A stretch of 64,000 nucleotides of DNA from a phage, in sequence record PZ386957.1, one strand, 5' to 3'. Position 1 is the stretch's first letter. Each line of letters opens with the position of its first letter. The position numbers and the translations under genes are program-made. The notes under the pieces are model-generated. The model was not told the DNA's origin, searched no databases, and saw nothing but the letters and a program-made list of their open reading frames with translations. Below, one piece after another: positions 11,458 to 56,178 of the stretch.

Positions 11458-11460
11458 TAC

Positions 11461-13176: not shown

Positions 13177-13187
13177 GGGGGCGTTTA

Positions 13188-14114: not shown

Positions 14115-14124
14115 TTGTCAATTT

Positions 14125-14143
14125 TCGGGGCGCTATGCCCCGA
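14125..14143 (+). other. Hairpin TCGGGGCGCTATGCCCCGA between the two fibre paralogs
   Basis: 7-bp GC stem seen in sequence, no T-tract; lies between the stop at 14114 and the RBS of the gene starting at 14166. Confidence 0.4.
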
Positions 14144-14165
14144 TCTAATTACTGGAGAATGCTTT

Positions 14166-15521: not shown

Positions 15522-15547
15522 TTTAATTCATCAATGGAGGTATTAAC

Positions 15548-18029: not shown

Positions 18030-18467
18030 TTATTTGTTAATAATGATTTGATTCTGACGGATCGTTACATTGCTTTTAGAGATGATCAGGTCATCCGGCA
18101 CTACGTTAGTTTTGTATGGCTGGAAGCGAACAAGCATCTGATTGCGTTTAGACCCTTCTTTGATCTTGATCTCCATTTGGATATTCCCACCTACACGCAC
18201 TACTGCGACCTGACCTTTATTTTCGTATACCCATTTGCTAGTATCATCACCAGCGAAAGCCTTAACGATCTGCAACGCTTCGTCATATGCAGTAGAGCTA
18301 TGAACTTCTAACAGACCTGCCGTTGCCAGACGGGAGCAGGTGATCGCCGGAGATTGCCATACATCAACATTGATTTGCTCGATCAAAGTTGCACCGCCCA
18401 GATCAACTGCTTTGAATGCTTCGAACATTGCTTTTTTCATTGCTACGTGGTTTTTACGGAATTTCAT
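18030..18467 (-). CDS. Hypothetical protein (145 aa)
   Basis: ORF with GAGGTG RBS; no family recognised. Confidence 0.7.
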   Translation of the reverse strand: MKFRKNHVAMKKAMFEAFKAVDLGGATLIEQINVDVWQSPAITCSRLATAGLLEVHSSTAYDEALQIVKAFAGDDTSKWVYENKGQVAVVRVGGNIQMEIKIKEGSKRNQMLVRFQPYKTNVVPDDLIISKSNVTIRQNQIIINK

Positions 18468-18513
18468 AATTATTCACCTCTATTGATTAAGTATTCATAT
18501 TGTCAATTTCAAA

Positions 18514-18798
18514 TCAGGACAATGCCTTATTGAATGCGTCCATTATAACAGTGTTTTTCGGTGTGTCAACTCTTTTTATTGTTGCTGGCTTAACTTTTTT
18601 GCGGTTCTTGTTAATGTGACGTTTGCGATAAACTACCTTTTCACGGTTGGCGTAAGCCTCGCGAGCGTCTTTAACCATTAACCATGCTTTCGCGGCTTCT
18701 TGTCCACTGATACCGCCTAGTGTTCTAGCAATATCAACAAAGTTCATACCTTTGTCCTCGCGGAGCATGTAAACCATCAATGCTTTCTGTTTGTCCAT
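18514..18798 (-). CDS. Small basic protein with helix-turn-helix-like segment
   Basis: 94 aa; MNFVDIARTLGGISGQEAAKAW looks HTH-like; K/R-rich C-terminus. Confidence 0.6.
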   Translation of the reverse strand: MDKQKALMVYMLREDKGMNFVDIARTLGGISGQEAAKAWLMVKDAREAYANREKVVYRKRHINKNRKKVKPATIKRVDTPKNTVIMDAFNKALS

Positions 18799-18995
18799 TA
18801 TTTCGCACCATCAACGATTAACAGGATAGTGATCAGTACCGGAATCTGGATCATGACAGTACCAAAAAACCGGATAAACGCATTTTCTGACTTCCATACA
18901 TTACACGCTGCTAGCTGATAGCACATTGTTGCAACCAGAGCAAGAATATAAACAGAAAGTGGTGTAACTTCGATCAGTCGCAAAATCTCATTCAT
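18798..18995 (-). CDS. Small membrane protein (two hydrophobic segments)
   Basis: 65 aa; LSVYILALVATMCYQLAA and VMIQIPVLITILLIV; RBS GAGGTG. Confidence 0.6.
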   Translation of the reverse strand: MNEILRLIEVTPLSVYILALVATMCYQLAACNVWKSENAFIRFFGTVMIQIPVLITILLIVDGAK

Positions 18996-19003
18996 AATTC
19001 ACC

Positions 19004-19075
19004 TCATACATTCATAAACACAACAACGAATAAGACAGTAACAGTTATCAATGCCATTTTCAACCCCATATTCAT
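19004..19075 (-). CDS. Candidate 23-aa hydrophobic peptide (MNMGLKMALITVTVLFVVVFMNV)
   Basis: ATG 8 nt after GTGAGGA, just downstream of a consensus promoter; too short to be certain. Confidence 0.3.
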   Translation of the reverse strand: MNMGLKMALITVTVLFVVVFMNV

Positions 19076-19117
19076 AATATTTTCCTCACTAGGACGAGCT
19101 ACCCGTCGATGTGTGCC

Positions 19118-19145
19118 ATTATAGGCCACTAAACCACGCTGTCAA
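19118..19145 (-). promoter_or_regulatory. Sigma70-type early promoter (TTGACA-16-TATAAT)
   Basis: Consensus -35 and -10 hexamers on minus strand upstream of the 19075-18030 operon. Confidence 0.7.
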
Positions 19146-19160
19146 GCATAAAAACAAAAA

Positions 19161-19180
19161 AGCCACCCTCTCGGATGGCT
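19161..19180 (-). terminator. Terminator after hoc-like gene 1
   Basis: Hairpin AGCCATCC..GGTGGCT followed by TTTTTTGTTTTT on minus strand. Confidence 0.6.
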
Positions 19181-19191
19181 TAAGATAAAAA

Positions 19192-23013: not shown

Positions 23014-23090
23014 TTGATATCCTCTTTTTAATTGCATAACGGAACTACAATTAAAATCATAACAAATATTTCACATCTACACTCTCAATA

Positions 23091-23804: not shown

Positions 23805-23833
23805 GTTATATTCTCCTAGTTTGATGGTGTTTG

Positions 23834-23841
23834 TATAAATA
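23834..23841 (+). promoter_or_regulatory. T4-type late promoter TATAAATA upstream of uvsW
   Basis: Exact TATAAATA 36 nt upstream of the uvsW ATG. Confidence 0.65.
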
Positions 23842-23876
23842 TTGTATATTGTATTTATTGAGTGAGGCTGTTCGCT

Positions 23877-34032: not shown

Positions 34033-34853
34033 TTAGTCACCTCACCGAAAATTGTAAATTGTCTACGATTCTCATCACCGAAAGATTCTACTACGTCGTT
34101 TACCTTGATGCAAGTCCCACGCGGTAAAATTACTTCACATTCGCAAGGGTTCCATGCAATCGACCCAACAACAAAACCTTTATGATCTTTTACATCAATC
34201 ACCCACGAAACATTACAAGAATGTTGCATCTTTCCGGTCATTGATTCATATCGATTTTCGCAATAAAGGCTAGTGCTATTTGAAAGCCAGCCTCCAAAGA
34301 TGATCGGTGTCATGCTGGTAGATACAAAGTTTTTAAAGGTAAATTCCTTATCTTCAATAATACGCTCTATTGTCTGAATGTCAAGATGTTGACCGCGATA
34401 AAGAGTACCGTTTAACTTTTCGGTTTTATCCATGACACAATCCATCAAATCAACCATTTCTGATATTTCGTCGGTCATGTCTTCTTCCCCTAAGAGAGCA
34501 CCATTTACCCATTCGTAATGCTCGGAGATATAATCGCAGATCGCATCATACTCGGCTGGGGTAAGATTGGTGTGTCCATAATGTTTGAATACACTATCTC
34601 CGAAGTCTTCGGATTGTACTTCGTACATGACATTAATGATCTTCTTGACAAATCCATAATCTTGTGTTTCTCGCTCAAGAAAACGGATAACCTTAACGTA
34701 ATCATCAAAGTTAATATGATCGCTGATCATCTCAGTGATCATGTAACCATTAATACCCTCAATGTCATATGTTTCAATATAATTGTCCATACGTTCCATC
34801 ATGGTTTCGCGTGCTTCTTCTGAAAGACGAAAACCCTGTAATTGTTTGAACAT
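34029..34853 (-). CDS. ADP-ribosyltransferase (Alt/Mod-like, R-S-ExE signature)
   Basis: 274 aa; LYRGQ (Arg), FVSTSM (STS), CECEVILPRG (ExE) aligned with the same motifs in the adjacent Alt; GGGAGG RBS. Confidence 0.75.
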   Translation of the reverse strand: MFKQLQGFRLSEEARETMMERMDNYIETYDIEGINGYMITEMISDHINFDDYVKVIRFLERETQDYGFVKKIINVMYEVQSEDFGDSVFKHYGHTNLTPAEYDAICDYISEHYEWVNGALLGEEDMTDEISEMVDLMDCVMDKTEKLNGTLYRGQHLDIQTIERIIEDKEFTFKNFVSTSMTPIIFGGWLSNSTSLYCENRYESMTGKMQHSCNVSWVIDVKDHKGFVVGSIAWNPCECEVILPRGTCIKVNDVVESFGDENRRQFTIFGEVTK

Positions 34854-34877
34854 TTTAAACCTCCCATATAACAGAAA

Positions 34878-34906
34878 ACGGGGCTAGTATAAAACTAGTC
34901 CCCGTT
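34878..34906 (-). terminator. Hairpin with T-run between alt and the downstream ART gene
   Basis: 11-bp interrupted inverted repeat ACGGGGCTAGT / ACTAGTCCCCGT followed on minus strand by TTTTCTGTT. Confidence 0.5.
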
Positions 34907-34931
34907 TGAGTCAACCATTATTTCTTAAAAA

Positions 34932-37029: not shown

Positions 37030-37044
37030 GGGGCTTTACGCCCC
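37030..37044 (-). terminator. Terminator after small early gene
   Basis: GGGGC-GTAAA-GCCCC followed by TTTTTC on minus strand. Confidence 0.6.
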
Positions 37045-37045
37045 A

Positions 37046-37225
37046 TTAAAACATCTTAGAAATTAATTCTGCTTTGATTTCGCAGAGAACATCTAAAGAT
37101 TTCTCGTCACCTGCTTTTGCTGCTTCTGCTTGCATTTTTGAAATGGCTTCGAGGTCGGTGCAATTATAAGCCGCCTGAACTTTAGCGATTGCGATGATTG
37201 CAGATTCGATTGTTAAGTGTTTCAT
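37046..37225 (-). CDS. Small early protein (59 aa)
   Basis: ATG with AGGAGA RBS 34 nt downstream of a perfect TTGACA-17-TATAAT promoter; MKHLTIESAIIAIAKVQAAYN... Confidence 0.65.
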   Translation of the reverse strand: MKHLTIESAIIAIAKVQAAYNCTDLEAISKMQAEAAKAGDEKSLDVLCEIKAELISKMF

Positions 37226-37257
37226 GTTTGATTCTCCTTTCGTTTCGGTATGTGTGC

Positions 37258-37286
37258 ATTATAGGGGATCGGTGATCCCCTGTCAA
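37258..37286 (-). promoter_or_regulatory. Early promoter cassette TTGACA-17-TATAAT with palindromic spacer GGGGATCACCGATCCCC
   Basis: Perfect -35 and -10 hexamers; spacer is a palindrome containing two GATC sites. Confidence 0.8.
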
Positions 37287-37293
37287 CAACTTT

Positions 37294-37812
37294 TTAGTTA
37301 TTTTTTAATTGCTCATCTTGCAATAATGCAATCACATGCTGGCGATGTTCTTCCGATTGAGGCACACCGAAAAAGTTTGTTTTGTAGAAATATTCTAATC
37401 GATCTTCTCGTGTGCTCTCTTCCATCATGATAGCTGGTAGACCAAGATTGCGAAAACGTCGCTTTTCTGCTGGCGTAAAATCGCTGTAATACAACATAGA
37501 ATCATCATTACCAGCAATGCTAAACTCATCCTTCATGAAAGAGAATATTGCGTTTAAACGCTGTTTACCGTCCACGATTTCGATCTCATAGCGAGAGCCA
37601 TCATCAATCTTAGCCATTGCGATAGCGCCTACCGGAAAATCATTAATAAGGTTTTCGACAAACATGCGTTTGTTTTCTGTATTCCATACCAACTCACGCT
37701 GATAATCTGGGTTCATGTTGATATAGCCATCTTCTAACCATGCCTCATAGACAGAGATGACAAAGTTTTTAGTATTGGTATAGTAACGGCGTTTAGGCGT
37801 TAAACGGTTCAT
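37294..37812 (-). CDS. DUF262/ParB-like nuclease-domain protein
   Basis: 172 aa from ATG at 37812 (AGGAG RBS); motifs DYQRELVW and VDGKQRL typical of the ParB/DUF262 (GmrSD N-terminal) fold. Confidence 0.7.
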   Translation of the reverse strand: MNRLTPKRRYYTNTKNFVISVYEAWLEDGYINMNPDYQRELVWNTENKRMFVENLINDFPVGAIAMAKIDDGSRYEIEIVDGKQRLNAIFSFMKDEFSIAGNDDSMLYYSDFTPAEKRRFRNLGLPAIMMEESTREDRLEYFYKTNFFGVPQSEEHRQHVIALLQDEQLKNN

Positions 37813-37813
37813 A

Positions 37814-38146
37814 TTATAGTCTCCTGAATGGATCATCACGTAGGTCAATATCTTTTAAGAACTCATCCCATGAATGCCGGATATTGTTCTTAGTTCTCCA
37901 GATAAGAGCAGGAATCGAACGCTCTCCCATCTGGAAGTAAGGATCATATGATCCATATGCCCAATATGCTACTACAATTCCACAATCAGCGCAATAGTAT
38001 TCTATTTCACTTGCTGGCGACCAAAGACCATCAATATGATCGGTGATCTTGCTTTCGATGTTATGGCTATGACAATCAGGGCAACGGATGCAATGACCTT
38101 GTTTATCGTAATTTGACGTTAGCGAATACTTGAATAATCTCATCAT
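37814..38146 (-). CDS. Zinc-ribbon protein
   Basis: 110 aa; CIRCPDCHSH...YYCADCG (two CxxC pairs); start overlaps upstream stop. Confidence 0.65.
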   Translation of the reverse strand: MMRLFKYSLTSNYDKQGHCIRCPDCHSHNIESKITDHIDGLWSPASEIEYYCADCGIVVAYWAYGSYDPYFQMGERSIPALIWRTKNNIRHSWDEFLKDIDLRDDPFRRL

Positions 38147-38859
38147 AGATCCTTATTGGCTTCAAATACTGCCTTTGCAAATCCGCGCGGGGTAAGTGAC
38201 CGGATAGTCTTTGTTCTGGTTCCTTTCCCGCCTAGCTTAGAATGCTGTTTACTGTACCCTTTCTCAATTGGTATCGGTTTCTTTTCTGGCATTATAAAGC
38301 CTTGTCCAGTCCATAGGCAAGTCTTTTTAGGATACATGTCACGGGCGGCGATATAATCAGGGAAGGTCGGATGTATATCATCTTCCGGTAAATATCCGCC
38401 ATATTCCCACGGGTGGAACATATAATCGGGTTTACGCCACATGCTAGAGATAACGCTTACAGGATTCTCTATCATGTAGGGAACGCCCAACCATTCGCCC
38501 AAATAAGCCGATATTTTCGCTGTTTGTACATCTCTGTGTTGAATGAGTGGACCTAGAGTTTTTCTCTTACGTTCAAAGTGTGCAGCACCACTAACCGCTA
38601 AATTTGAACAGCTAGGAAATGCAAAAATCATATCCGGTTTGCCCCATTCAAGATCCATTGCTCTTTCTAGCCAATCCAAATCAATCCAGGTGTTTACATA
38701 GGTAATGTTTGGATGCTCAAATCGGGTATTATACTTTTTGTATGTACCGTGGTCGCCATCGTCAGCATTAAAGCAGATCACCTTATGACCTGCTTTAGCC
38801 CATTCTAGCCCCATTATCCCCGATCCGTCAAAGTTGCAGAATATTAATTTTTGTTTCAC
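38143..38859 (-). CDS. Compact C5-cytosine DNA methyltransferase-like protein
   Basis: 238 aa, GTG start overlapping upstream stop (GTGA); motif I-like FDGSGIMG, PCQ-like FPSCSNLAVSG with Cys, ENV-like MIENPV, C-terminal RSLTPRGFAKAVF resembling RxLTPRExxRLQGF. Confidence 0.65.
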   Translation of the reverse strand: MKQKLIFCNFDGSGIMGLEWAKAGHKVICFNADDGDHGTYKKYNTRFEHPNITYVNTWIDLDWLERAMDLEWGKPDMIFAFPSCSNLAVSGAAHFERKRKTLGPLIQHRDVQTAKISAYLGEWLGVPYMIENPVSVISSMWRKPDYMFHPWEYGGYLPEDDIHPTFPDYIAARDMYPKKTCLWTGQGFIMPEKKPIPIEKGYSKQHSKLGGKGTRTKTIRSLTPRGFAKAVFEANKDL

Positions 38860-39107
38860 GCTGCCCCCATTGGTTTGATAGTAACAGAATCTAAAAGACC
38901 TTTGTTAGCCAGTTCGCGGCAAGTTTTCAGATCCGCAACTTCCCAGCCAGCCGCAATCAGATTATCGATGAGGCTGTTAGCAACGTATTCGCTCATGAAA
39001 GAGCACTGTTTGCCGATGGTGTAGCGTACACGCTGTAATTTAAGTTTACGGAAGCCTTTAACGTTCAGGTCTTTAGCGATTTTCTTTGCGGTTTCGATGT
39101 TAGCCAT
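38856..39107 (-). CDS. Hypothetical protein (83 aa), first gene of the MTase operon
   Basis: ATG with GGAGAATC RBS downstream of promoter at 39148-39176. Confidence 0.65.
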   Translation of the reverse strand: MANIETAKKIAKDLNVKGFRKLKLQRVRYTIGKQCSFMSEYVANSLIDNLIAAGWEVADLKTCRELANKGLLDSVTIKPMGAA

Positions 39108-39147
39108 TGTTTGATTCTCCTAAGTGGTATCTCGTCTTGATGTGTGT

Positions 39148-39176
39148 ATTATAGGGGATCTCCCGATCCCCGTCAA
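39148..39176 (-). promoter_or_regulatory. Early promoter cassette TTGACG-17-TATAAT with palindromic spacer GGGGATCGGGAGATCCCC
   Basis: Hexamers and GATC-containing palindrome seen in sequence. Confidence 0.75.
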
Positions 39177-39190
39177 CAACTTTTTTAAAA

Positions 39191-39472
39191 TTATTCGTGA
39201 TTAGTTTCGATGTTATACATTTTGCACCAGTTCAGCCAATCACCCAGATCCTGATAGTTGATGCTTTTATCTGCTGCCATCGTTTTTGTCTTGATACCCA
39301 TATGTGCGTTATGAGTAACCATTTTTACAGTGAACTCAATTTTATCGCCTTTGGCCTTAACATCAACCAGTTTGGTCCACTGGCTACCAGCGCCGCGAAT
39401 GTTCATACCAACGATGTTTCCGATGTATGCTTCTTTGTTTTTCAGGATTTCGGTTGCTTTGATGAATTTCAT
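39191..39472 (-). CDS. Hypothetical protein (93 aa)
   Basis: ORF with RBS and own promoter. Confidence 0.65.
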   Translation of the reverse strand: MKFIKATEILKNKEAYIGNIVGMNIRGAGSQWTKLVDVKAKGDKIEFTVKMVTHNAHMGIKTKTMAADKSINYQDLGDWLNWCKMYNIETNHE

Positions 39473-39505
39473 TTTTGATTCTCCAGTTCGTTTCGGTATG
39501 GGTGT

Positions 39506-39534
39506 ATTATGCTATGTTCTTACTTTGGTGTCAA
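39506..39534 (-). promoter_or_regulatory. Early promoter cassette (TTGACA-17-CATAAT)
   Basis: Shares the extended conserved context AAAAAGTTGTTGACA ... CATCGAAAC with the other cassettes. Confidence 0.65.
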
Positions 39535-39542
39535 CAACTTTT

Positions 39543-39812
39543 TTAGATATTTTCAGAAATAAATTTTAAAACTTGACGTAAATGTTTCTCATCTTTGATA
39601 GTCGCCGGAAGTTCTTCTTTTACTTCCTGTGCAAGATAGATATTGCCGTTCCAAGTGAAAGATCCGTCTTCGTTTACGCGGTAGCTGAACATCCACTCGC
39701 AATCATTTTCGACTTCATAAACACACAGAAGGGTGTAATCATTAAAGTTATTGATTTCAAGGTCGAGGCCGTGACGTTTTGCAAAGTTGGTAGTGGTTTT
39801 AGTCAATGCCAT
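39543..39812 (-). CDS. Hypothetical protein (89 aa)
   Basis: ORF with GGAGAATC RBS and own promoter. Confidence 0.65.
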   Translation of the reverse strand: MALTKTTTNFAKRHGLDLEINNFNDYTLLCVYEVENDCEWMFSYRVNEDGSFTWNGNIYLAQEVKEELPATIKDEKHLRQVLKFISENI

Positions 39813-39852
39813 TGTTTGATTCTCCTAAGTAGTATCTCGTTTCGATGGGTGT

Positions 39853-39881
39853 ATTATGATATAGGCGTGATCTGGTGTCAA
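39853..39881 (-). promoter_or_regulatory. Early promoter cassette (TTGACA-17-CATAAT)
   Basis: Consensus context as above. Confidence 0.65.
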
Positions 39882-39910
39882 CAACTTTTTTAAAATTTAG
39901 GCAATAAAAA

Positions 39911-39928
39911 GCCGACACTAAGGTCGGC
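39911..39928 (-). terminator. Terminator GCCGACC-TTAG-TGTCGGC + T-run (repeated at 40413)
   Basis: Hairpin followed by TTTTTATTGC on minus strand; the ~35-bp terminator block recurs identically at 40413-40430. Confidence 0.7.
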
Positions 39929-39933
39929 ACATT

Positions 39934-40188
39934 TTAAAAATTCTTGCTATATATGCAAGCCTCATAATCTAGAGGATGACCGCCAATCCTACCAGGCTTA
40001 ATATTCCAACCGCATCGATATTTGCTGACCATGCTAACCGTTTCGGTTCTTAGAGCATTTCTTTGCAAATCATACCCCCTAAATTCTTGTCTATAAGGAC
40101 AGTCCGCTTTGCAAGTTGGCGGTTCTACGTCATTTAGCGGGTCAGAAGCAGTTGGCTTTATTATCAATTCTTTGTTTGCAATAATCAT
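39934..40188 (-). CDS. Hypothetical Cys-containing protein; start uncertain, overlaps upstream ORF in another frame
   Basis: Track ORF 39934-40251; first ATG at 40188 lies inside the ORF ending at 40142, with no clear RBS. Confidence 0.4.
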   Translation of the reverse strand: MIIANKELIIKPTASDPLNDVEPPTCKADCPYRQEFRGYDLQRNALRTETVSMVSKYRCGWNIKPGRIGGHPLDYEACIYSKNF

Positions 40189-40321
40189 AAGCACATCCCA
40201 TTGAAGGCAATTTAACATCTTCGCAATAAGTGTTGAATCCGTCAAATACAATCACTTCGTATTTGACTCCATCGGCGATAGCTTTTACTTTATACCATCC
40301 ATGCTTGTATAAAATCTTCAT
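40142..40321 (-). CDS. Small Cys-rich protein (59 aa)
   Basis: ATG at 40321 with GAGGGAAA RBS downstream of promoter 40355-40383. Confidence 0.6.
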   Translation of the reverse strand: MKILYKHGWYKVKAIADGVKYEVIVFDGFNTYCEDVKLPSMGCAYDYCKQRIDNKANCF

Positions 40322-40354
40322 CTTTATTTCCCTCAATCTCGTTTCGATGGGTGT

Positions 40355-40383
40355 ATTATGCTATACACAGGATCTAGTGTCAA
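40355..40383 (-). promoter_or_regulatory. Early promoter cassette (TTGACA-17-CATAAT)
   Basis: Consensus context. Confidence 0.65.
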
Positions 40384-40412
40384 CAACTTTTTAAAATTTT
40401 ATGCAATAAAAA

Positions 40413-40430
40413 GCCGACACTAAGGTCGGC
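40413..40430 (-). terminator. Terminator (second copy of the 39911 hairpin block)
   Basis: Identical hairpin and flanks. Confidence 0.7.
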
Positions 40431-40438
40431 TAATAAAA

Positions 40439-40747
40439 TCATTTAGACAAATAATCATTCTGTGCAATCCGGTCAGCATGTTCCGGCGTTACGTCAATCG
40501 CAATCACTTTAACGCGTGCTTTCTTGCGACCTGGGTTTTCTCGTAACCAGTGCTCATGACCGTGAACATTTTTATACTGCGATGCTTCTTCGAAGGTACG
40601 GATCGGACCTGGGTAATCAGCGTAAAGGATCTCTAGATCTTCGGTGATGTAAAAATATACATCGTAATTGCTGTTCTCTAGCTTAAGCAGAGACTTTCGG
40701 AACATTGGGAGATTTTCGCGGGTAAATTCAAAGATATTATCTTTCAT
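40439..40747 (-). CDS. HxHW-motif family protein, paralog 1
   Basis: 102 aa; YFYITEDLEI...HGHEHW...VIAIDV. Confidence 0.7.
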   Translation of the reverse strand: MKDNIFEFTRENLPMFRKSLLKLENSNYDVYFYITEDLEILYADYPGPIRTFEEASQYKNVHGHEHWLRENPGRKKARVKVIAIDVTPEHADRIAQNDYLSK

Positions 40748-40797
40748 AGTATTATCCTCAATAGTTGGATGAAAAGGGGGCTTAACGCCCCCATATA

Positions 40798-41085
40798 TTA
40801 AAACAGCCCTTCCTGTACACCGTAGTAGAGTTCGTCACTGATAATTTCATTAATGCGACGGTGTGCATATTCCTGATTTGCGAAGTTGTCAGCAAGTTCT
40901 ACTTTAGTTTCGCCGTCATGAGTCCATTTAGTGATAACTTTACCATCTGCAAATTTGAAGTTGAACTCTTTAGCTACTGCATCGCGTACCAGACGTGCAA
41001 ACTTGTTGTTACGGATTGCATTATCGGTTTCGTGTGCAGCGTGAGCAAATTTGTTAACTTTCAGCGTGATAGTGATGTATGCCAT
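40798..41085 (-). CDS. Hypothetical protein (95 aa)
   Basis: ORF with GGAGAAT RBS. Confidence 0.65.
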   Translation of the reverse strand: MAYITITLKVNKFAHAAHETDNAIRNNKFARLVRDAVAKEFNFKFADGKVITKWTHDGETKVELADNFANQEYAHRRINEIISDELYYGVQEGLF

Positions 41086-41131
41086 AATTTGATTCTCCTA
41101 GTTAGAAAGTGTATCTCGTTTCGATGGGTGT

Positions 41132-41160
41132 ATTATGCTATACACCCGATCTTATGTCAA
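41132..41160 (-). promoter_or_regulatory. Early promoter cassette (TTGACA-17-CATAAT)
   Basis: Consensus context. Confidence 0.65.
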
Positions 41161-41166
41161 CACTTT

Positions 41167-41445
41167 TTATAAAATAATTTTTTGATATTTTTCTATGATG
41201 TTTGTGTAGGTCACGTCAACCGCTAGCACCGTTGCTTCGAATCCACCGTTTAACCAATGGCTATGATCATGGTCGTGAAAGAAACCTAGACCAGTACGAA
41301 GACCTTCTTTATATTCTGCGCGTACATTCAGTTTGTCGTCGATAAACAGATAAAACCATGAATTTTTACTAGGATTGATGATACAACCTTTCAGATTAGG
41401 GAGAATATCACGACTAAGAATAAACTTATCACCTACTTTGAACAT
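41167..41445 (-). CDS. HxHW-motif family protein, paralog 2
   Basis: 92 aa from ATG at 41445 (GTGAGGA RBS); FYLFIDDKL...HDHDHSHW...VLAVDV. Confidence 0.7.
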   Translation of the reverse strand: MFKVGDKFILSRDILPNLKGCIINPSKNSWFYLFIDDKLNVRAEYKEGLRTGLGFFHDHDHSHWLNGGFEATVLAVDVTYTNIIEKYQKIIL

Positions 41446-41449
41446 AATA

Positions 41450-41770
41450 TTAGTCCTCACTTATAAGGTCAAACCAATTGTTTTTCGCATAATGCTTAAT
41501 GCGTGCTTGATCTGCTTCCGATGGTGATAGATTCCATGCAACCACTACAACTTCTGACGCATCGTCATCCGTTTCTGATACCCAATGATTGTGATTCATA
41601 CAGTTATTTGCTATCGAGTGAGCAAATGATTTCATCACTGGAGACGTATAATCATAGTAACGGATTTTCAGATTTTCATCAACGTACAAATAGATCGTAT
41701 AAGGTTTATATTCAGTAACCAGTAACAGACAGTTACGCAATTCTGGGAAAATATTTTTAGTTAATTTCAT
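41450..41770 (-). CDS. HxHW-motif family protein, paralog 3
   Basis: 106 aa; IYLYVDENL...MNHNHW...VVVAWN. Confidence 0.65.
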   Translation of the reverse strand: MKLTKNIFPELRNCLLLVTEYKPYTIYLYVDENLKIRYYDYTSPVMKSFAHSIANNCMNHNHWVSETDDDASEVVVVAWNLSPSEADQARIKHYAKNNWFDLISED

Positions 41771-41972
41771 ATTCTAGTTCTCCGTAATACACGGTAATCC
41801 ATTTTTCTTCATACTTTGTATCTTTCCAACACACAATCCCGTTTACTGTGCAATCTTTGGAATTGACGAATGATTCATATTGTTCTGCATCTTCCATCAT
41901 TGCATGAGCGGTCTTTTCATCGAATATATCGCAGATCGCTTTATATGCTCGATAATCTTTAAATTTGCTCAT
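41757..41972 (-). CDS. Small protein, tandem paralog a (MSKFKDY...)
   Basis: 71 aa from ATG at 41972; about 50% identical to the adjacent 41975-42184 product. Confidence 0.6.
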   Translation of the reverse strand: MSKFKDYRAYKAICDIFDEKTAHAMMEDAEQYESFVNSKDCTVNGIVCWKDTKYEEKWITVYYGELEYEIN

Positions 41973-41974
41973 AA

Positions 41975-42184
41975 TTAAGACCACTCAAGAGTTTTTGAAA
42001 ACACATCTATCCATTGTTGAGTATATGCGGTTTCTTTCCATGATACAATACCAGTCGAATAATGGTTTTTGTTTCCAGAAAAGGACGGGCATTTTGAGGC
42101 ATCTTCCATCATCTTTTCGGCGAACTCTGGTTCGTATACTCGCAAGATCTGTTGATATGCTTTATAATCTTTAAATTTGCTCAT
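41975..42184 (-). CDS. Small protein, tandem paralog b (MSKFKDY...)
   Basis: 69 aa; shares MSKFKDYxAY...MMEDA...GIVxWKxTxY with the neighbour. Confidence 0.6.
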   Translation of the reverse strand: MSKFKDYKAYQQILRVYEPEFAEKMMEDASKCPSFSGNKNHYSTGIVSWKETAYTQQWIDVFSKTLEWS

Positions 42185-42449
42185 AATTGTTAACTACCTT
42201 ATCAGCTTCTTTTATTGTTTTTACATCAACTGCGATAATCCGTAAAGGTTCGTCGAAGGTCCACCAATGATCGTGAATATCGGCTTGTGATTTATCACCA
42301 AAGGAATCACGAATATCATTTTTACATTTATAGCCAATGTGACCTTCATAGTCAACATAAAGGTAATTATCGAAAATCGGCGTTTTTAAGATCATACCGA
42401 AAAATCTTTCTTTGTGTGTCTTATCCAGTGTTGCAGTAATTCTCATCAT
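42171..42449 (-). CDS. HxHW-motif family protein, paralog 4
   Basis: 92 aa; YLYVDYEG...IHDHWW...IIAVDV; AGAGGAA RBS. Confidence 0.7.
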   Translation of the reverse strand: MMRITATLDKTHKERFFGMILKTPIFDNYLYVDYEGHIGYKCKNDIRDSFGDKSQADIHDHWWTFDEPLRIIAVDVKTIKEADKVVNNYEQI

Positions 42450-42461
42450 AATATATTCCTC

Positions 42462-42641
42462 TTAGAAAGGGATGGTCATTTCTTGAGCTTGTACATTCTC
42501 GTTAGGATTAAACTTCATCCAACCGATATTGTCTACCAGCATATGCACATTTTTATCATATCCTACGTGAGTAGTCAACACTAAATGTGTTTTACCTTCA
42601 ACGATGATTTCCATGTACTTCTGAACTTCGATAGCTTTCAT
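42462..42641 (-). CDS. Small protein (59 aa), below the ORF-track length cutoff
   Basis: ATG at 42641 with GGAGA RBS, 33 nt downstream of promoter 42674-42702. Confidence 0.5.
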   Translation of the reverse strand: MKAIEVQKYMEIIVEGKTHLVLTTHVGYDKNVHMLVDNIGWMKFNPNENVQAQEMTIPF

Positions 42642-42673
42642 TTTGATTCTCCGTTTGTTGTCTTGATGGGAGT

Positions 42674-42702
42674 ATCTTACTACTCCCTTTAATCATTGTC
42701 AA
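42674..42702 (-). promoter_or_regulatory. Early promoter cassette (TTGACA-17-TAAGAT) with GGGAGT...ACTCCC palindrome
   Basis: -35 consensus, weaker -10, palindromic spacer. Confidence 0.5.
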
Positions 42703-42705
42703 CTA

Positions 42706-42873
42706 TTATTTGTTAATTTCCGGTGCGTTGCTCGGATAGTAACCTTCTTTAACACCCAGATATTTCGCAACCATTCCGGTGATCTTCTGTGCTACTACGA
42801 TATCGAATTTCAGGTAGTCTTCACCGTGGTTTGCTACAATGTATGCTTCGCATTCTGCTTTAGTCTGGAACAT
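42706..42873 (-). CDS. Small protein (55 aa)
   Basis: ATG at 42873 with AGGAGA RBS downstream of promoter 42908-42936. Confidence 0.55.
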   Translation of the reverse strand: MFQTKAECEAYIVANHGEDYLKFDIVVAQKITGMVAKYLGVKEGYYPSNAPEINK

Positions 42874-42907
42874 TTTTGATTCTCCTATATCTCGTTGGTA
42901 TGTGTGC

Positions 42908-42936
42908 ATTATAGGGGATCACCGATCCCCTGTCAA
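42908..42936 (-). promoter_or_regulatory. Early promoter cassette TTGACA-17-TATAAT with palindromic spacer GGGGATCGGTGATCCCC
   Basis: Perfect hexamers and GATC palindrome. Confidence 0.8.
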
Positions 42937-42943
42937 CAACTTT

Positions 42944-43252
42944 TTATTCTTCATCTTCAACTTTATCTTTATATGCGTATTTCATAAATTTGTCTGCTAC
43001 TTTGTCGGCCTTTTCTGGTTTGACGTCTGACGCCAGGACAATGGCTAGATCGGTTTCGTCGTTCCCACCATACCAGTGATTATGTGTGTCGTTTTCATCA
43101 ATATAGAATTTATCACCTTCGTAAGTTCGAGCAAATACATCTAAATTCCCATCGATGTAAAAGATCCAATCTTCGTAAAGAATAACCGTATTAGCAAGGT
43201 TCTTGTTGCCTTCAACGAAAGGTTCGGTTACAAACAAATTGGTACGTTCCAT
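42944..43252 (-). CDS. HxHW-motif family protein, paralog 5
   Basis: 102 aa; IFYIDGNL...THNHW...AIVLASDV; GAGGA RBS. Confidence 0.7.
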   Translation of the reverse strand: MERTNLFVTEPFVEGNKNLANTVILYEDWIFYIDGNLDVFARTYEGDKFYIDENDTHNHWYGGNDETDLAIVLASDVKPEKADKVADKFMKYAYKDKVEDEE

Positions 43253-43308
43253 AATATTATCCTCAAATTATGGGAGAGTATTACCCTCCCAATGATTGTT
43301 ATATTACA

Positions 43309-43629
43309 TTACACAAAATGGCGTGTCAATGCTTCTTTTGCTGTTCCGCTAAGACTTTCGATCTCGCCTGGCATAACATCAACTGCCAGAACTTCTACAA
43401 CATCCTCGGACCATAACCAGTGAGTATGACCTTTGTAGAACTTGATAACCAGACTACCTTCCTCGTCCCATTTAACGCTATCGCTAGCCCACCACACATC
43501 ACCGTCGATAAAGTTGATGTAAAGTACGCTACGCCACATAGAATTAGTTACTTTTAGGACCGCGCCTTTCATCTCTTCCACGGTGTGGTCTTCCATTTTG
43601 AAGACCTCGCCTACCTGAACTTTTGCCAT
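43309..43629 (-). CDS. HxHW-motif family protein, paralog 6
   Basis: 106 aa; LYINFIDGDV...GHTHW...VLAVDV; AGAGGTG RBS. Confidence 0.7.
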   Translation of the reverse strand: MAKVQVGEVFKMEDHTVEEMKGAVLKVTNSMWRSVLYINFIDGDVWWASDSVKWDEEGSLVIKFYKGHTHWLWSEDVVEVLAVDVMPGEIESLSGTAKEALTRHFV

Positions 43630-43646
43630 TTAGTCACCTCTCTTTA

Positions 43647-43826
43647 TTACATAACAATCACGCCAGCCGTTGAAAGTTGATGTTTCAGTTGAGCATTTTC
43701 TGCTACCGTCAAATCAATGATTTCTTGTGACGCTGCAATCATATAACCATTGGTGATATTGTTTTGCATCAGTTCAATGGTTTCTTCGTTGTAGCGGATT
43801 TTAGCGATGATTTCGTTGAAGTTCAT
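43647..43826 (-). CDS. Small protein (59 aa)
   Basis: ATG at 43826 with AGGAGAATC RBS downstream of promoter 43861-43890. Confidence 0.55.
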   Translation of the reverse strand: MNFNEIIAKIRYNEETIELMQNNITNGYMIAASQEIIDLTVAENAQLKHQLSTAGVIVM

Positions 43827-43860
43827 AATTGATTCTCCTAGTTCGTTTCGGTATGTGTGT

Positions 43861-43890
43861 AGTATAGGGGATCGGTGATCCCCTGTCAAC
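43861..43890 (-). promoter_or_regulatory. Early promoter cassette (TTGACA-18-TATACT) with palindromic spacer GGGGATCACCGATCCCC
   Basis: Consensus -35, imperfect -10, GATC palindrome. Confidence 0.6.
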
Positions 43891-43902
43891 AACTTTTTTG
43901 AA

Positions 43903-44379
43903 TTATTTTTCTTGATGCTCGCGCTCATACTTTTCGAAATAAAATTCTACTGGCTGGTCGTGGATTGACAGTAAGCCAAAGCGTTTAGCCGCGCGTAATC
44001 CCATGTTACGTTGAATGTACTTCTGGAAGTTCTCGCGTATACACTTACGCCAGTATTCTAAGCCCATACAGCTTTTATAAAGATTGCATTGCACACACGA
44101 CGGATTCATGTTATCAAGTATATCATGTTCCGGTTTATGCATTCCTACAACCTTATACTTCCACGATCCATCATCATTACGGGAAATTCGTCCATTTTCA
44201 TCATAGACTACTTTTGAGCGTCGCAATACTGGTTTGATGTGGTCTGCGTGCCAGCGATCCCCTAGTTCCTCGCCACAATAGGCACAACGTCCACCGTATT
44301 TCATTTTCAGGATCTGGCGTTGCTCTTTCTTTGACAATTTTTTAGGTTTAGGGGCTTTCGCCCCTTCATTATCACACAT
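43903..44379 (-). CDS. HNH endonuclease
   Basis: 158 aa; CAYCGEELGDRWHADHIKP (CxxC...HxDH) and later Cys pair; start overlaps DNA ligase stop. Confidence 0.75.
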   Translation of the reverse strand: MCDNEGAKAPKPKKLSKKEQRQILKMKYGGRCAYCGEELGDRWHADHIKPVLRRSKVVYDENGRISRNDDGSWKYKVVGMHKPEHDILDNMNPSCVQCNLYKSCMGLEYWRKCIRENFQKYIQRNMGLRAAKRFGLLSIHDQPVEFYFEKYEREHQEK

Positions 44380-51298: not shown

Positions 51299-51697
51299 TT
51301 AGCTTTCCAGAATATCGCGAGCTTCGTTACGCTCTTTGATGATTTTAAGGACAAACTCCAGTTTTTCTTTGTTCAGTGTCCCGTTTTCCATTGCTTCTTT
51401 GGCAGTGAATACTCCGCCACCTTGACCATACACAGTGACAGTAATTTCGCCTAACATGGTGATGTGAAAACCGCCAATTTTCGGTGATTCGAAAGAAACA
51501 ATCACCTCGCGGACAGTATTACCGTCGTTGATTTCTGAGAGGGTAATGTCGTTTTTGTAGGCGGTTGCTTTAACCATACGGATCAGCATAGTCTGATCTG
51601 GGGAGATGGTCATTTTGTCCATTGCATGTTGCAACGCAGCGTAACCGAAAACTTTAACGAAATCCAGAACGTCTTTGCGAGTTTGAAACTTAATCAT
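51299..51697 (-). CDS. Hypothetical protein (132 aa)
   Basis: ORF with AGGAG RBS and own promoter. Confidence 0.65.
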   Translation of the reverse strand: MIKFQTRKDVLDFVKVFGYAALQHAMDKMTISPDQTMLIRMVKATAYKNDITLSEINDGNTVREVIVSFESPKIGGFHITMLGEITVTVYGQGGGVFTAKEAMENGTLNKEKLEFVLKIIKERNEARDILES

Positions 51698-51738
51698 CTT
51701 GATACTCCTTAGTAAGTTAGTTTCGTTTCGATGGGGGT

Positions 51739-51767
51739 ATATTACTACCCCCGTTTCATGCTGTCAA
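51739..51767 (-). promoter_or_regulatory. Early promoter cassette (TTGACA-17-TAATAT) with GGGGGTA...TACCCCC palindrome
   Basis: About 45 bp nearly identical to the cassette at 52002-52048. Confidence 0.6.
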
Positions 51768-51986
51768 CTACTTTTTAATGACAAGTTCGAATTTTGCTAC
51801 CTTGCGTCCTCGCTTATTGAAAGCAACCCACGGACGGTTTTCAATGTAGAACAATTCTTCGCCAATAATTAATACTGGCTGATTGTAAAGGCGACCCATC
51901 AGGTCACGCTGGCGAATGGTAGTAGATTTGTAAACTTCGCCTACTACAAAGTGTTTGCTGATAGAGTCGGTGCAAGTAAATTTCAT
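51768..51986 (-). CDS. Hypothetical protein (72 aa)
   Basis: ORF with AGGAGAATC RBS and own promoter. Confidence 0.6.
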   Translation of the reverse strand: MKFTCTDSISKHFVVGEVYKSTTIRQRDLMGRLYNQPVLIIGEELFYIENRPWVAFNKRGRKVAKFELVIKK

Positions 51987-52019
51987 TTTGATTCTCCTTT
52001 GTTTCGTTTCGATGGGGGT

Positions 52020-52048
52020 ATATTACTACCCCCGTTATTCAGTGTCAA
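52020..52048 (-). promoter_or_regulatory. Early promoter cassette (second copy of 51739 block)
   Basis: Same sequence block as 51721-51767. Confidence 0.6.
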
Positions 52049-52055
52049 CTACTTT

Positions 52056-52274
52056 TTACTTGTTGTATTCATTCCACCATTGGGTGAGCTTATCAATTAT
52101 TTTTGTGTTTCTATCCAACTTATCCCACCGTTTTCGAGGGTTTATCAACCGGAATAGGTAAGGTGTACTTGTTAAGTGGACTCGGTCAATATAGTGATTG
52201 ATGTACTGTTTTTCGATTCTAAGTTTCATCTTTTTACGATGAAAATATGCAATGACTTGTTCTTCTGTTTCCAT
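52056..52274 (-). CDS. Hypothetical basic protein (72 aa)
   Basis: ORF with GGAGGAAC RBS and own promoter. Confidence 0.6.
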   Translation of the reverse strand: METEEQVIAYFHRKKMKLRIEKQYINHYIDRVHLTSTPYLFRLINPRKRWDKLDRNTKIIDKLTQWWNEYNK

Positions 52275-52298
52275 ATGTTCCTCCGTTTCGATGTGCGT

Positions 52299-52327
52299 AT
52301 TATGCTATGGCAAGATCCTATTGTCAA
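52299..52327 (-). promoter_or_regulatory. Early promoter cassette (TTGACA-17-CATAAT)
   Basis: Consensus context. Confidence 0.6.
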
Positions 52328-52344
52328 CACCCAATAACAAAAAA

Positions 52345-52362
52345 GTCGCCACTATGGGCGAC
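52345..52362 (-). terminator. Terminator after HAD-like gene
   Basis: GTCGCC-CATAGT-GGCGAC followed by TTTTTTGTT on minus strand. Confidence 0.6.
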
Positions 52363-52374
52363 TTTGAACAAACA

Positions 52375-54901: not shown

Positions 54902-55068
54902 TATTCGACAACCTCAAAGCATTTATCATCAGGTAGAATAGCCCATTCTACGCCGTATTCATCCTCAACGTAGTAGCAAGCCCCATCATGTCGAGCATCA
55001 TATACATCACCGACAACAAAGCTATCAGCTAGCTCAAAATCTACAGCAACACATTTTAATTTGATCAT
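54901..55068 (-). CDS. Small protein (55 aa)
   Basis: ATG at 55068 with GTGAGGA RBS downstream of promoter 55100-55128. Confidence 0.5.
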   Translation of the reverse strand: MIKLKCVAVDFELADSFVVGDVYDARHDGACYYVEDEYGVEWAILPDDKCFEVVE

Positions 55069-55099
55069 AATAAAATCCTCACTTGTTTTTGATGGTTGA

Positions 55100-55128
55100 A
55101 TTATAGCGGGGATTTCTCCCCGCGTCAA
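55100..55128 (-). promoter_or_regulatory. Promoter/stem-loop cassette TTGACG-17-TATAAT whose spacer is the hairpin GCGGGGAGAAATCCCCGC
   Basis: The hairpin plus flanking A/T runs also reads as a terminator for the upstream nrdA fragment. Confidence 0.65.
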
Positions 55129-55140
55129 CACTTATTTTTT

Positions 55141-56178
55141 TTACAGTTTGCAAGATGAACATTCGCTAGCGTCTTCCGTACCATCAGCACCATCACGAAC
55201 GTTAGCGTAATACAGTGTCTTGAGGCCGTAATATTGAGCAAACAGCATATCATCTAACACATCAACAATATCGACTTTACCAGTCTTATAAGTGCTTGGA
55301 TCGTAGGATGTATTGGAACTAATCGCCTGGTCTACAAACTTCTGCATGATCGCTGCCAGTGTCAGATAAGGCTTGTTACCTTTCTTGATCAGTGTCCAAA
55401 GCAGGTCAATAACATCAGCATTATTCTCTACGTTCGGAATAACCTGATTAAATTGTCCTTCCTTTGATCCTTTAACCGATACAATCCCGCGAGGCGGTTC
55501 AATACCATTTGTGCTGTTAGATACCTGAGAAGACGACTCACAAGGCATCAGCGCCGAAAGCGTACTGTTACGAATGCCATATTTTTTCAGGTCTTCGCGC
55601 AGTTCTTCCCAATCCATCTCATACACCGGATCAACCAGTTCATCTACTGTCTTTTTGTACCAGTCGATAGGCAGTTCACCGCGTCCATAACGTGTTTCGT
55701 GCATCAGTTCGCAAGCACCCTTCTCTTTAGCCAGTTGCACACTAGCCTTAATCAGAGCATATTGCAAGCGTTCAAACGTTTTATGCGTAAACTCGTTAGC
55801 GTCTTCATATGTGAAGAAATTATCCGCCAAATATGATGCAAAGTTAGTCACACCAACACCCAGAGAGCGACGTTTTTTGGCTGTCAGAGCTTGTTCTACA
55901 GGATAATCCTGATAATCTAACAGGTTGTCAAGTGCACGCACCATAACCATAGCAATGCGTTCTACTTCTTCCATGTTTTCGATATCGAAATTACCTAAAA
56001 CATAGGCAGCTAAGGTGCATAGTCCCACCTCGGCGTCTTCTTTCCCCATCGGAGAAGTGGGGAGTGTAATTTCCATGCAGTTATGTACTAAAATATCATT
56101 AGCGAAGAAAGAATGTGTATCTTCTACGGTAATGTCGTAAACCGGAATTTCAATCTCAATATATTCAATCTCAACCAT
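55141..56178 (-). CDS. nrdA: nrdA C-terminal fragment: split-intein C-half fused to NrdA C-terminal part (from catalytic Cys)
   Basis: 345 aa; first 33 aa MVEIEYIEIEIPVYDITVEDTHSFFANDILVHN are intein blocks F/G, followed by CMEITLPTSP...LCTLAA (compare E. coli NrdA SNLCLEIALPT...ALCTL). Confidence 0.85.
   Translation of the reverse strand: MVEIEYIEIEIPVYDITVEDTHSFFANDILVHNCMEITLPTSPMGKEDAEVGLCTLAAYVLGNFDIENMEEVERIAMVMVRALDNLLDYQDYPVEQALTAKKRRSLGVGVTNFASYLADNFFTYEDANEFTHKTFERLQYALIKASVQLAKEKGACELMHETRYGRGELPIDWYKKTVDELVDPVYEMDWEELREDLKKYGIRNSTLSALMPCESSSQVSNSTNGIEPPRGIVSVKGSKEGQFNQVIPNVENNADVIDLLWTLIKKGNKPYLTLAAIMQKFVDQAISSNTSYDPSTYKTGKVDIVDVLDDMLFAQYYGLKTLYYANVRDGADGTEDASECSSCKL
56080..56178 (-). 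mobile_element. Split intein C-terminal half (IntC, 33 aa)
   Basis: Ends FFANDILVHN followed by Cys, as in known phage-type split inteins. Confidence 0.8.

Follow-up and report, generated by a model that had tools for sequence, protein, structure and literature searches.

Promoter-early stem-loop (PeSL) cassettes were defined in the coliphages RB49 and phi1 (Arbiol et al. 2010, Genome Biol Evol 2:140; PMC2839356). A PeSL comprises an AT-rich tract that usually includes the stop codon of the preceding gene, a promoter with the exact sigma70 consensus and a stem-loop, often of polyG/polyC, in one of five possible positions; a Shine-Dalgarno (SD) sequence and the next gene's start codon complete it. 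In the commonest subclasses the hairpin lies between the -35 and -10 hexamers or overlaps the -10. About 51-52 PeSLs are present per genome, mainly in hyperplastic regions before orphan open reading frames (ORFs; ORFans). Activity data in RB49/phi1 cover PeSL193/192, PeSL206/205 and PeSL211/210: PeSL206/205 promotes strong lacZ expression (~13,000 Miller units), and the PeSL211/210 stem-loop terminates about as well as rrnB T1 (PMC2839356). Here we analyse repeated promoter and stem-loop blocks in a 64,000-nucleotide stretch of phage DNA (sequence record PZ386957.1; "the window" denotes this whole stretch) and conclude, with high confidence, that they are PeSL cassettes of an RB49-like Krischvirus.

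PeSLs are of interest because they give T4-type phages a documented way to reshuffle small accessory genes along with the promoter and terminator belonging to them. Circular molecules of an ORFan plus a chimeric PeSL (mini-circles) were obtained by inverse polymerase chain reaction, and PeSL x PeSL junctions were sequenced (PMC2839356). The RB49 early promoter consensus fits the 5'-end mapping of early transcripts (Nolan 2006). Composites of early promoter and stem-loop also occur in T4/PST and in the vibriophages nt-1/KVP40, again in hyperplastic regions with differential ORFs. They differ from the cassettes considered here in their consensus (TTTACW..TAYWAT; TTGYVH..TAWWAT) and in their stems (AGNA-loop-TCNT; A3-4G3-loop-C3T3-4), and have no G-run/GATC stems of the present kind (Comeau et al. 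2014, Genome Biol Evol 6:1611; PMC4122927).

Promoter cassettes between alt and gene 30

The 7-kb interval flagged for repeated promoter cassettes in an earlier note on this DNA showed 92-95% identity to 59 phage genomes, every one Krischvirus, and sequence comparison identifies the window as a close relative of RB49, that is, an RB49-like T4-type coliphage of this genus. Flanked by the alt ADP-ribosyltransferase (PF03496) and gene 30 DNA ligase gp30 (PF01068), the region at 37.0-44.0 kb aligned colinearly with its orthologue in RB49, ORF185-212, which is the alt-to-gene-30 hyperplastic region. The worked examples of the original description, ORF192 and ORF210 (PMC2839356), fall within the flagged interval. 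ORFs between alt and gene 30 are labelled 'hypothetical' in all relatives and, compared with RB49, the window genome is without ORF185, 189.1, 191, 192, 207, 210 and 211.

Both strands of the window were scanned for TTGACA-N16-18-TATAAT, allowing one mismatch in the 12 positions. The minus strand has 20 such sites and the plus strand a single one, as against a mean of 2.96 and a maximum of 10 on both strands together in first-order Markov simulations of the window; eight sites at 11-12/12 match, all on the minus strand, lie at 36.9-44.0 kb. The earlier note had counted at least 17 minus-strand promoters, and every coordinate it listed proved correct (37258, 39148, 42908, 43861, 19118, 51739, 52020, 52299, 55100, 61378, 62822 and 63901). 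Those coordinates refer to the last base of the -10 hexamer; cassettes are named below by the start of the -35. Cassettes 43329, 42702, 34914 and 18569 are outside the listed coordinates, some of them possibly within the 17.

The consensus blocks GTTGTTGACA, CATCGAAACGA and GGAGAATCAAA gave 15, 11 and 11 matches against 5.1, 1.4 and 2.0 expected, respectively, all well in excess of chance. AAAAAGTTG or variants of it stand 5' of the -35 as the AT-rich tract, and stop codons lie 5-15 nucleotides (nt) upstream, such as TAA at 39191-39193, 41167-41169 and 43903-43905. An ATG follows 24-74 nt past the -10 in every one of the 20 cassettes, and the downstream ORF has no more than 110 amino acids (aa) in 13. 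The extended consensus that the promoters were said to share is well matched in about 12-13 cassettes, where AAAAAGTTG, leader and SD occur together, and does not extend to all 17; the distal copies 63928, 19145 and 18569 show hardly any likeness past the two hexamers. The palindrome GGGGATC-N3/4-GATCCCC, with two GATC sites, was found between -35 and -10 in the four cassettes for which it had been noted: the N3 form occurs three times against 0 expected (37264-37280, 42914-42930 and 43867-43883), and the N4 variant, GGGGATCGGGAGATCCCC, lies at 39154-39171. The duplicated blocks were present as well, with 41/47 identical positions between 51721-51767 and 52002-52048 (the final 35 all identical) and 32/33 between 39896-39928 and 40398-40430.

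The likeness to PeSLs that the note had drawn therefore holds at a locus orthologous to the one where PeSLs were defined, with every sequence-level defining feature present. Shared with the RB49/phi1 PeSLs are genus, locus, TTGACA-N17-TATAAT, a GGGG..CCCC stem-loop, SD and ORFan ATG, and the cassettes here sit at ORF191/192 and ORF210/211 presence/absence junctions. Nothing differs in kind; the genome has its own ORFan combination and its own chimera at 39176. Between the -35 and the ATG, both included, cassette 42936 and RB49 PeSL206/205 have the same sequence, and the spacer of cassette 43889 is 2 nt different from the PeSL211/210 stem-loop. The cassettes are already known, down to orthologous copies. 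Because PeSLs were described in 2010 in the close relatives RB49 and phi1, finding them here is a rediscovery. The cassettes of the region, read as PeSLs, and two stand-alone terminators are listed below (all on the minus strand; z values are for RNA folds against shuffles).

37223..37301, minus: PeSL (cassette 37286); -35 TTGACA 37286-37281, -10 TATAAT 37263-37258, then GGAGAATCAAA; spacer hairpin GGGGATCACCGATCCCC at 37280-37264 with two GATC; ATG at 37225 of a 59-aa ORF, the RB49p186 orthologue; RNA fold -14.1 kcal/mol, z -2.73
39105..39198, minus: chimeric PeSL (cassette 39176); -35 TTGACG 39176-39171, -10 39153-39148; hairpin GGGGATCGGGAGATCCCC at 39171-39154 with two GATC, z -2.49; ATG 39107, 83-aa ORF
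39470..39549, minus: PeSL-type early promoter with no hairpin (cassette 39534); -35 39534-39529, -10 CATAAT to 39506; spacer ccaaagtaagaacatag, conserved in 9/9 relatives; ATG 39472, 93-aa ORF
39810..39928, minus: PeSL with upstream terminator hairpin only, none in the core (cassette 39881); -35 39881-39876, -10 CATAAT to 39853; terminator hairpin GCCGACcttagtGTCGGC-TTTTT at 39928-39911; spacer ccaGATCacgcctatat with one GATC; ATG 39812
40319..40431, minus: PeSL, near-duplicate of cassette 39881 (cassette 40383); -35 40383-40378; terminator hairpin at 40431-40412, in a block 32/33 identical to that of cassette 39881; spacer ctaGATCctgtgtatag with one GATC; 6-bp hairpin GTGTAT/ATACAC over the -10; ATG 40321
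41083..41175, minus: PeSL (cassette 41160); -35 41160-41155; one spacer GATC; 8-bp hairpin GGGTGTAT-agcata-ATACACCC overlapping the -10, z -3.62; ATG 41085, 95-aa ORF
42639..42717, minus: PeSL (cassette 42702); -35 42702-42697, -10 TAAGAT; hairpin GGGAGTA-gtaaga-TACTCCC overlapping the -10, z -3.38; ATG 42641
42871..42951, minus: PeSL (cassette 42936); -35 42936-42931, -10 TATAAT to 42908; spacer hairpin GGGGATCGGTGATCCCC at 42930-42914 with two GATC, z -1.98; ATG 42873, 55-aa ORF
43250..43340, minus: weaker PeSL-like cassette (43329); -35 43329-43324, -10 TAATAT to 43301; hairpin GGGAG-ggtaata-CTCCC 3' of the -10 (about 43287-43271); ATG 43252; at 43250-43271, 6 of 9 relatives have an insertion of about 150-185 bp (185 bp in five, ~152 bp in G37-3)
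43824..43904, minus: PeSL (cassette 43889); -35 43889-43884, -10 TATACT to 43861; spacer hairpin GGGGATCACCGATCCCC at 43883-43867 with two GATC, z -3.00; ATG 43826, 59-aa ORF
37030..37044, minus: stand-alone terminator GGGGCGTAAAGCCCC-TTTTT, 3' of the 59-aa ORF
40776-40792, minus: stand-alone terminator GGGGGCGTTAAGCCCCC-TTTT

In such a cassette, the AT-rich, UP-like tract and the near-consensus sigma70 -35 and -10 hexamers would be used by unmodified host RNA polymerase immediately after infection. We infer this step for each cassette from the consensus match, with support from published reporter assays and 5'-end mapping of RB49 cassettes that are identical or nearly so. A short conserved leader and a GGAG Shine-Dalgarno sequence would then lead to the ATG of a small, mostly orphan early gene. 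In RNA coming from upstream promoters the hairpin may attenuate or terminate read-through, as one published reporter assay suggests, and we propose that each small gene would therefore be insulated and under its own promoter. By analogy with T4 biology, the GGAG sequences could in addition be RegB cleavage sites; regB is present in RB49. Promoter strength, terminator activity, mini-circles and mapped 5' ends, as described for RB49/phi1, would by the same token be expected of every copy here.

Hairpin pairing and spacer GATC sites

A hairpin was present in 16 of the 20 cassettes, in four of the five published positions. Five lie in the spacer (37286, 39176, 42936 and 43889, with GGGGATC..GATCCCC, and 55128, with GCGGGGA..TCCCCGC) and six over the -10 (34914, 40383, 41160, 42702, 51767 and 52048). 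Five upstream hairpins (19145, 39881, 40383, 52327 and 62849) are classical terminators with a T-run. Cassette 40383 has both an upstream hairpin and one over the -10, and cassette 43329 alone has one downstream of the -10. Compared with shuffles, RNA folds gave z values from -2.0 to -4.1 in 8 of 10 cassettes, cassettes 39534 and 39881 being those without a core hairpin; we regard cassette 39534 as unstructured because its z value is -0.17.

We then pooled RB49, the window, eight other relatives and two IMG/VR contigs, which yielded 87 distinct cores with a 17-nt spacer. Across this set the stems stay paired with differing sequences and in four registers. Alternative paired stems include GGGGATC/GATCCCC, GGGGAG/CTCCCC and GCGGGGA/TCCCCGC, as well as GGGGGTA/TACCCCC and GGGAGTA/TACTCCC, and at one and the same orthologous site (41160) GGGTGTAT/ATACACCC is matched in orthologues by a compensated GGGGATAT/ATATCCCC. 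This pattern of variation argues for selection on structure and not on a binding sequence. It also bears on the possibility that a dimeric phage protein binds DNA at the palindromic spacers as its operators, and so would shut off early promoters and could replace the missing AsiA/MotA. Such a role would fit the placement of a palindrome between -35 and -10, and in RB49 neither a motA orthologue nor a middle promoter consensus was found, AsiA orthologues being reported only for other phages of that study (Nolan 2006). However, the inverted repeats stand in at least four registers relative to the promoter, and unrelated stem sequences with compensatory changes are the signature of selection on pairing rather than on a recognition sequence. 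As the stems vary in both sequence and register while pairing is kept, we rejected the repressor-operator explanation and hold it to be highly improbable.

Within the GGGGATC hairpin, the loop is much more variable than the stem. The 3-nt loop of GGGGATC-NNN-GATCCCC reads ACC or its reverse complement GGT, and also GCC or GGC; these variants were seen between cassettes (37264-37280, 42914-42930 and 43867-43883) and at one orthologous cassette across phages. Such flips suggest either inversion or template switching mediated by the hairpin, or conversion of one cassette by another. Cruciform extrusion with endonuclease VII cleavage as a trigger of recombination was set aside, the stems being only 6-8 bp long.

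Intrinsic (Rho-independent) terminators are matched by the hairpins at 39911-39928, 40412-40431, 52342-52365 and 19160-19181, which have GC-rich stems with a T5-6 run behind them. Hairpins in the spacer or overlapping the -10 are unlike them in preceding the -10 box or the leader with no U-tract, and terminator activity of these two classes rests on a single published reporter assay of a related stem-loop. The stand-alone terminators at 37030-37044 and 40776-40792 are near-identical hairpins with no promoter attached, and form a second small repeat family of the region. Neither the 34-46 kb region nor the window as a whole had an Rfam 15 match at gathering score. In IMG/VR, exact copies of TTGACAGGGGATCNNNGATCCCCTATA were present in only two contigs (164.7 kb and 150 kb), which added no diversity, and the motif therefore looks confined to this phage group.

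GATC counts are unbiased genome-wide (346 against 352 expected in the window; 945 against 887 in RB49). In PeSL spacers there are 13 against 1.4 expected in the window (9x) and 19 against 3.8 in RB49 (5x), almost always at positions 3/4 and 11. Neither PeSL paper mentions GATC or Dam (PMC2839356; PMC4122927), and the GATC content of the stems is the only unpublished element here besides small comparative details. We asked whether fixed-position GATC, found in roughly a quarter to half of PeSL promoters, could be under selection, so that with the phage Dam the promoters would read template methylation. Paired spacer sites would then make a subset of early promoters Dam-methylation-sensitive and tell parental from newly replicated DNA, or dam+ from dam- hosts. 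Consistent with such a role, the enrichment occurs at fixed positions despite the unbiased genome-wide count, the position-4 GATC is also present in spacers where it is not part of the hairpin, and a D12-class dam gene is found in RB49 and all 59 Krischvirus records (outside the window). Moreover, a spacer GATC was present in only 1 of about 90 distinct unrelated promoters of the same -35 context, among the matches listed. This is a rough control only, as the underlying metagenome scan (AAGTTGTTGACA-N17-YATAMT) is unspecific; among the matches listed it returned mainly unrelated strong promoters, many before tRNA genes, and one Krischvirus-like locus.

By contrast, GGGG, CCCC and GGGA are enriched 14-26x, above GATC, so the signal follows the hairpin consensus. 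The GATC counts are also not independent, because the copies are related by descent and gene conversion. Nor are the sites conserved among orthologues: they are lost or replaced in cassettes of RB49, G37-3, KMB43, SFHK24 and W115. One GATC is lost at orthologous sites (GGGGGTC in RB49; GTATCCCC in PeSL211/210), and at the 43889 site G37-3 and KMB43 carry the GATC-free GGGGAG/CTCCCC in place of the whole stem. Most PeSLs are without GATC, and those of T4/PST and nt-1/KVP40 have other stems (PMC4122927). Taken together, the comparison tells mildly against Dam-dependent regulation through the spacer sites.

Dam-sensitive promoters with GATC in or near the hexamers include IS10 transposase pIN, dnaA P2 and P1 cre. 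The cassettes resemble them in placing GATC inside the RNA polymerase footprint, with Dam available from host and phage. In those promoters, however, GATC overlaps the -10 or -35 and the dependence has been measured, whereas the sites here lie in the spacer and are not conserved at orthologous positions. Most likely, GATC in the four spacers represents the inner base pairs of one successful hairpin variant spread by copying, and both selection for template-methylation reading and a Dam-sensitive promoter subset are improbable. If true, early ORFan expression would be switched in a replication-coupled or host-dam-dependent way in a group with no reported MotA/AsiA orthologues. GATC in the commonest stem of a genus with its own Dam would, if functional, add a small but new layer of early-gene control.

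Breakpoints, a chimeric cassette and proposed gene shuffling

A breakpoint map was made by aligning 34.0-46.5 kb to nine relatives and chaining the matches, a cassette being taken as -95 to +30 around the -35. Seven of 12 distinct local indel or replacement junctions fell inside cassettes, which make up 18% of the region (p = 0.002), and an eighth lay 13 bp outside one. Against the whole RB49 genome, 7 of the 25 junctions of the 64-kb window were within cassettes, which cover 3.9% of the sequence (p = 4e-5). Alignments of ECD7 and G37-3 break at 37227-37239, in cassette 37286; breakpoints at cassette 39176 lie at 39191-39198 and 39092-39110; and alignments of relatives break at 40336, in cassette 40383. 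At cassette 43889 the breakpoints are 43842 and 43916-43919, and RB49 ORF210 and ORF211 are absent immediately upstream. By the earlier note, absence of the cassettes from gene-content breakpoints in relatives would have told against its reading; they do sit at such breakpoints.

Cassette 39176 illustrates how such junctions may arise. The RB49 order is ORF193 - PeSL - ORF192 - PeSL192/191 - ORF191 - PeSL191/190 - ORF190. ORF192 is absent in five relatives, and both ORF192 and ORF191 are absent in the window, Brandy and UPWr_E1. In the sole remaining cassette, 39176, the 5' half matches PeSL192/191 (TTGACGgggatcgggagatccccTATAATacacaca) and the 3' half PeSL191/190 (tcaagacgagataccacttaggagaatcaaacaATG), which is the product predicted by the published model. 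We propose that, because the cassettes are near-identical repeats of about 80-100 bp, in many copies and one orientation, efficient phage homologous recombination would delete, insert or swap ORFans. Recombination between cassettes would leave chimeric cassettes behind, in keeping with the chimera and the breakpoint pattern here and with the mini-circle junctions in the literature.

Several observations weigh against the cassettes being PeSLs with a shuffling role. Four of them (39534, 63928, 61405 and 18569) have no hairpin at all, and the spacer hairpins precede UAUAAU with no canonical U-tract and fail a simple terminator scan. Four or five local breakpoints are away from cassettes, as is every large insertion that distinguishes the window from RB49. 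Taking gene junctions as the null gave no significant difference, with breakpoints at 6 of 10 PeSL junctions and 4 of 13 others (Fisher p = 0.16); the association is therefore in the expected direction and is not proven by this small sample. That p value, the insertions away from cassettes and the breakpoints at PeSL-free junctions (38843-38858, 41966, 43627-43629 and 37046-37050) would all suit ordinary early promoters and terminators that are alike through a shared functional optimum, play no special part in shuffling and gather indels simply as intergenic sequence. However, the likeness reaches past the hexamers to the upstream AAAAAGTTG, the 16-nt leader and the SD context, and cassette 39176, as a chimera, cleanly joins parts of two RB49 cassettes, the ORF between them being gone. 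Spacers at orthologous sites exchange between alleles present at other loci, and PeSL x PeSL recombination junctions have been sequenced in mini-circles (Arbiol 2010, PMC2839356). We thus consider ordinary promoters an unlikely explanation and prefer PeSL cassettes. With one more genome carrying the same cassettes at the same hot spots and a fresh chimeric junction, the published model is confirmed and not extended.

Several single-ORF indels relative to relatives are not at PeSLs: 38843-38858, 43250-43271 and 43627-43629. They sit at short direct repeats or overlapping stop-start junctions, with 16-bp and 22-bp overlaps of the flanking alignments, suggesting therefore a second, microhomology-type route of ORFan gain and loss beside PeSL recombination.

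Other cassettes and neighbouring genes

Cassettes elsewhere in the window, again read as PeSLs or as consensus early promoters, are as follows.

34851..34929, minus: PeSL 5' of a 274-aa ADP-ribosyltransferase-like ORF; -35 at 34914; long hairpin ACGGGGACTAGT-tttat-ACTAGCCCCGT over the -10, then TTTT, identical in 9/9 relatives
51695..52063, minus: two tandem PeSLs flanking a 72-aa ORF; -35 at 51767 and 52048; identical hairpin GGGGGTA-gtaata-TACCCCC over the -10 and same leader, z -2.99
52272..52365, minus: PeSL; -35 at 52327; one spacer GATC; upstream terminator hairpin AAAGTCGCC-catagt-GGCGACTTTTTT
55066..55143, minus: PeSL; -35 TTGACG at 55128; spacer hairpin GCGGGGA-gaaa-TCCCCGC with no GATC, z -4.12
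61344..63943, minus: three consensus early promoters; -35 at 61405, 62849 (terminator hairpin upstream) and 63928 (counterpart of the annotated 'early RB49 promoter' upstream of RB49 gene 32)
18465..19181, minus: pair of consensus early promoters; -35 at 18569 and 19145 (preceded by terminator hairpin AAGCCATCC-gaga-GGGTGGCTTTTTT)

Breakpoints relative to RB49 lie around the tandem PeSLs at 51780, 51982 and 52058. In the sole perfect-consensus promoter on the plus strand, TTGACA-N16-TATAAT at 23134-23161, GATC follows the -35 immediately and occurs again just past the -10. Lying within or beside the minus-strand ORF 23091-23921, this promoter may serve early transcription of the plus-strand gene uvsW.

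The ORFans between cassettes at 40439-43629 (minus strand) include paralogue families. One, of about 100 aa with H-x-HW and V-x-A-x-DV motifs, comprises 40439-40747, 41167-41445, 41450-41770, 42944-43252 and 43309-43629, and 42171-42449 is probably a further member; the ORFs 41757-41984 and 41975-42184 both start with MSKFKDY and share 46% identity. Local duplication therefore goes along with shuffling.

A 238-aa ORF at 38143-38859 (minus) is labelled 'DNA methyltransferase' in relatives and has, by eye, the C5-methyltransferase-like motifs FDGSG, PSCSNLAVSG and IENP, with no Pfam match at E = 0.01. Two ORFs downstream of it, with a 110-aa zinc-ribbon ORF between, 37294-37830 (minus) encodes a small protein with a GmrSD_N (DUF262) domain (E = 6e-19). 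The block 37047-39092 is entirely absent from MIZ4.

The nrdA gene, uninterrupted in RB49, is in three ORFs here (55141-58788, minus; 1406 bp here against 2 bp there). An intein splicing domain is divided between two of them, its N-half at the end of the N-terminal part (57181-58788, 535 aa) and its C-half at the start of the C-terminal part (55141-56178, 345 aa); between these parts comes a free-standing ORF for an HNH endonuclease (56171-57145, 324 aa). The arrangement resembles a 'fractured gene' with a split intein, the intein matches being under the Pfam cut-off (31.6 and 26.6 bits against 35.8). At 979 aa, against about 607 aa in RB49, the ORF of the large terminase (gp17; 1-2940, plus) is longer by two in-frame insertions, of 663 bp (495-1159) and 443 bp (1435-1879), which interrupt the Terminase_6N domain; a very weak intein-splicing match (E = 0.033) was found, and the insertions are possibly one or two inteins. 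Compared with RB49, the window also has two large insertions away from PeSLs. The first, a 4.4-kb block at 11157-15547, lies between g23 and g24 and has three plus-strand ORFs of 571, 308 and 468 aa, the latter two coiled-coil or alanine-zipper-like. In the second, beside hoc (20470-23037), an ORF of 855 aa encodes at least five immunoglobulin domains, and its product may be a second and larger decoration protein of the Hoc-like kind.

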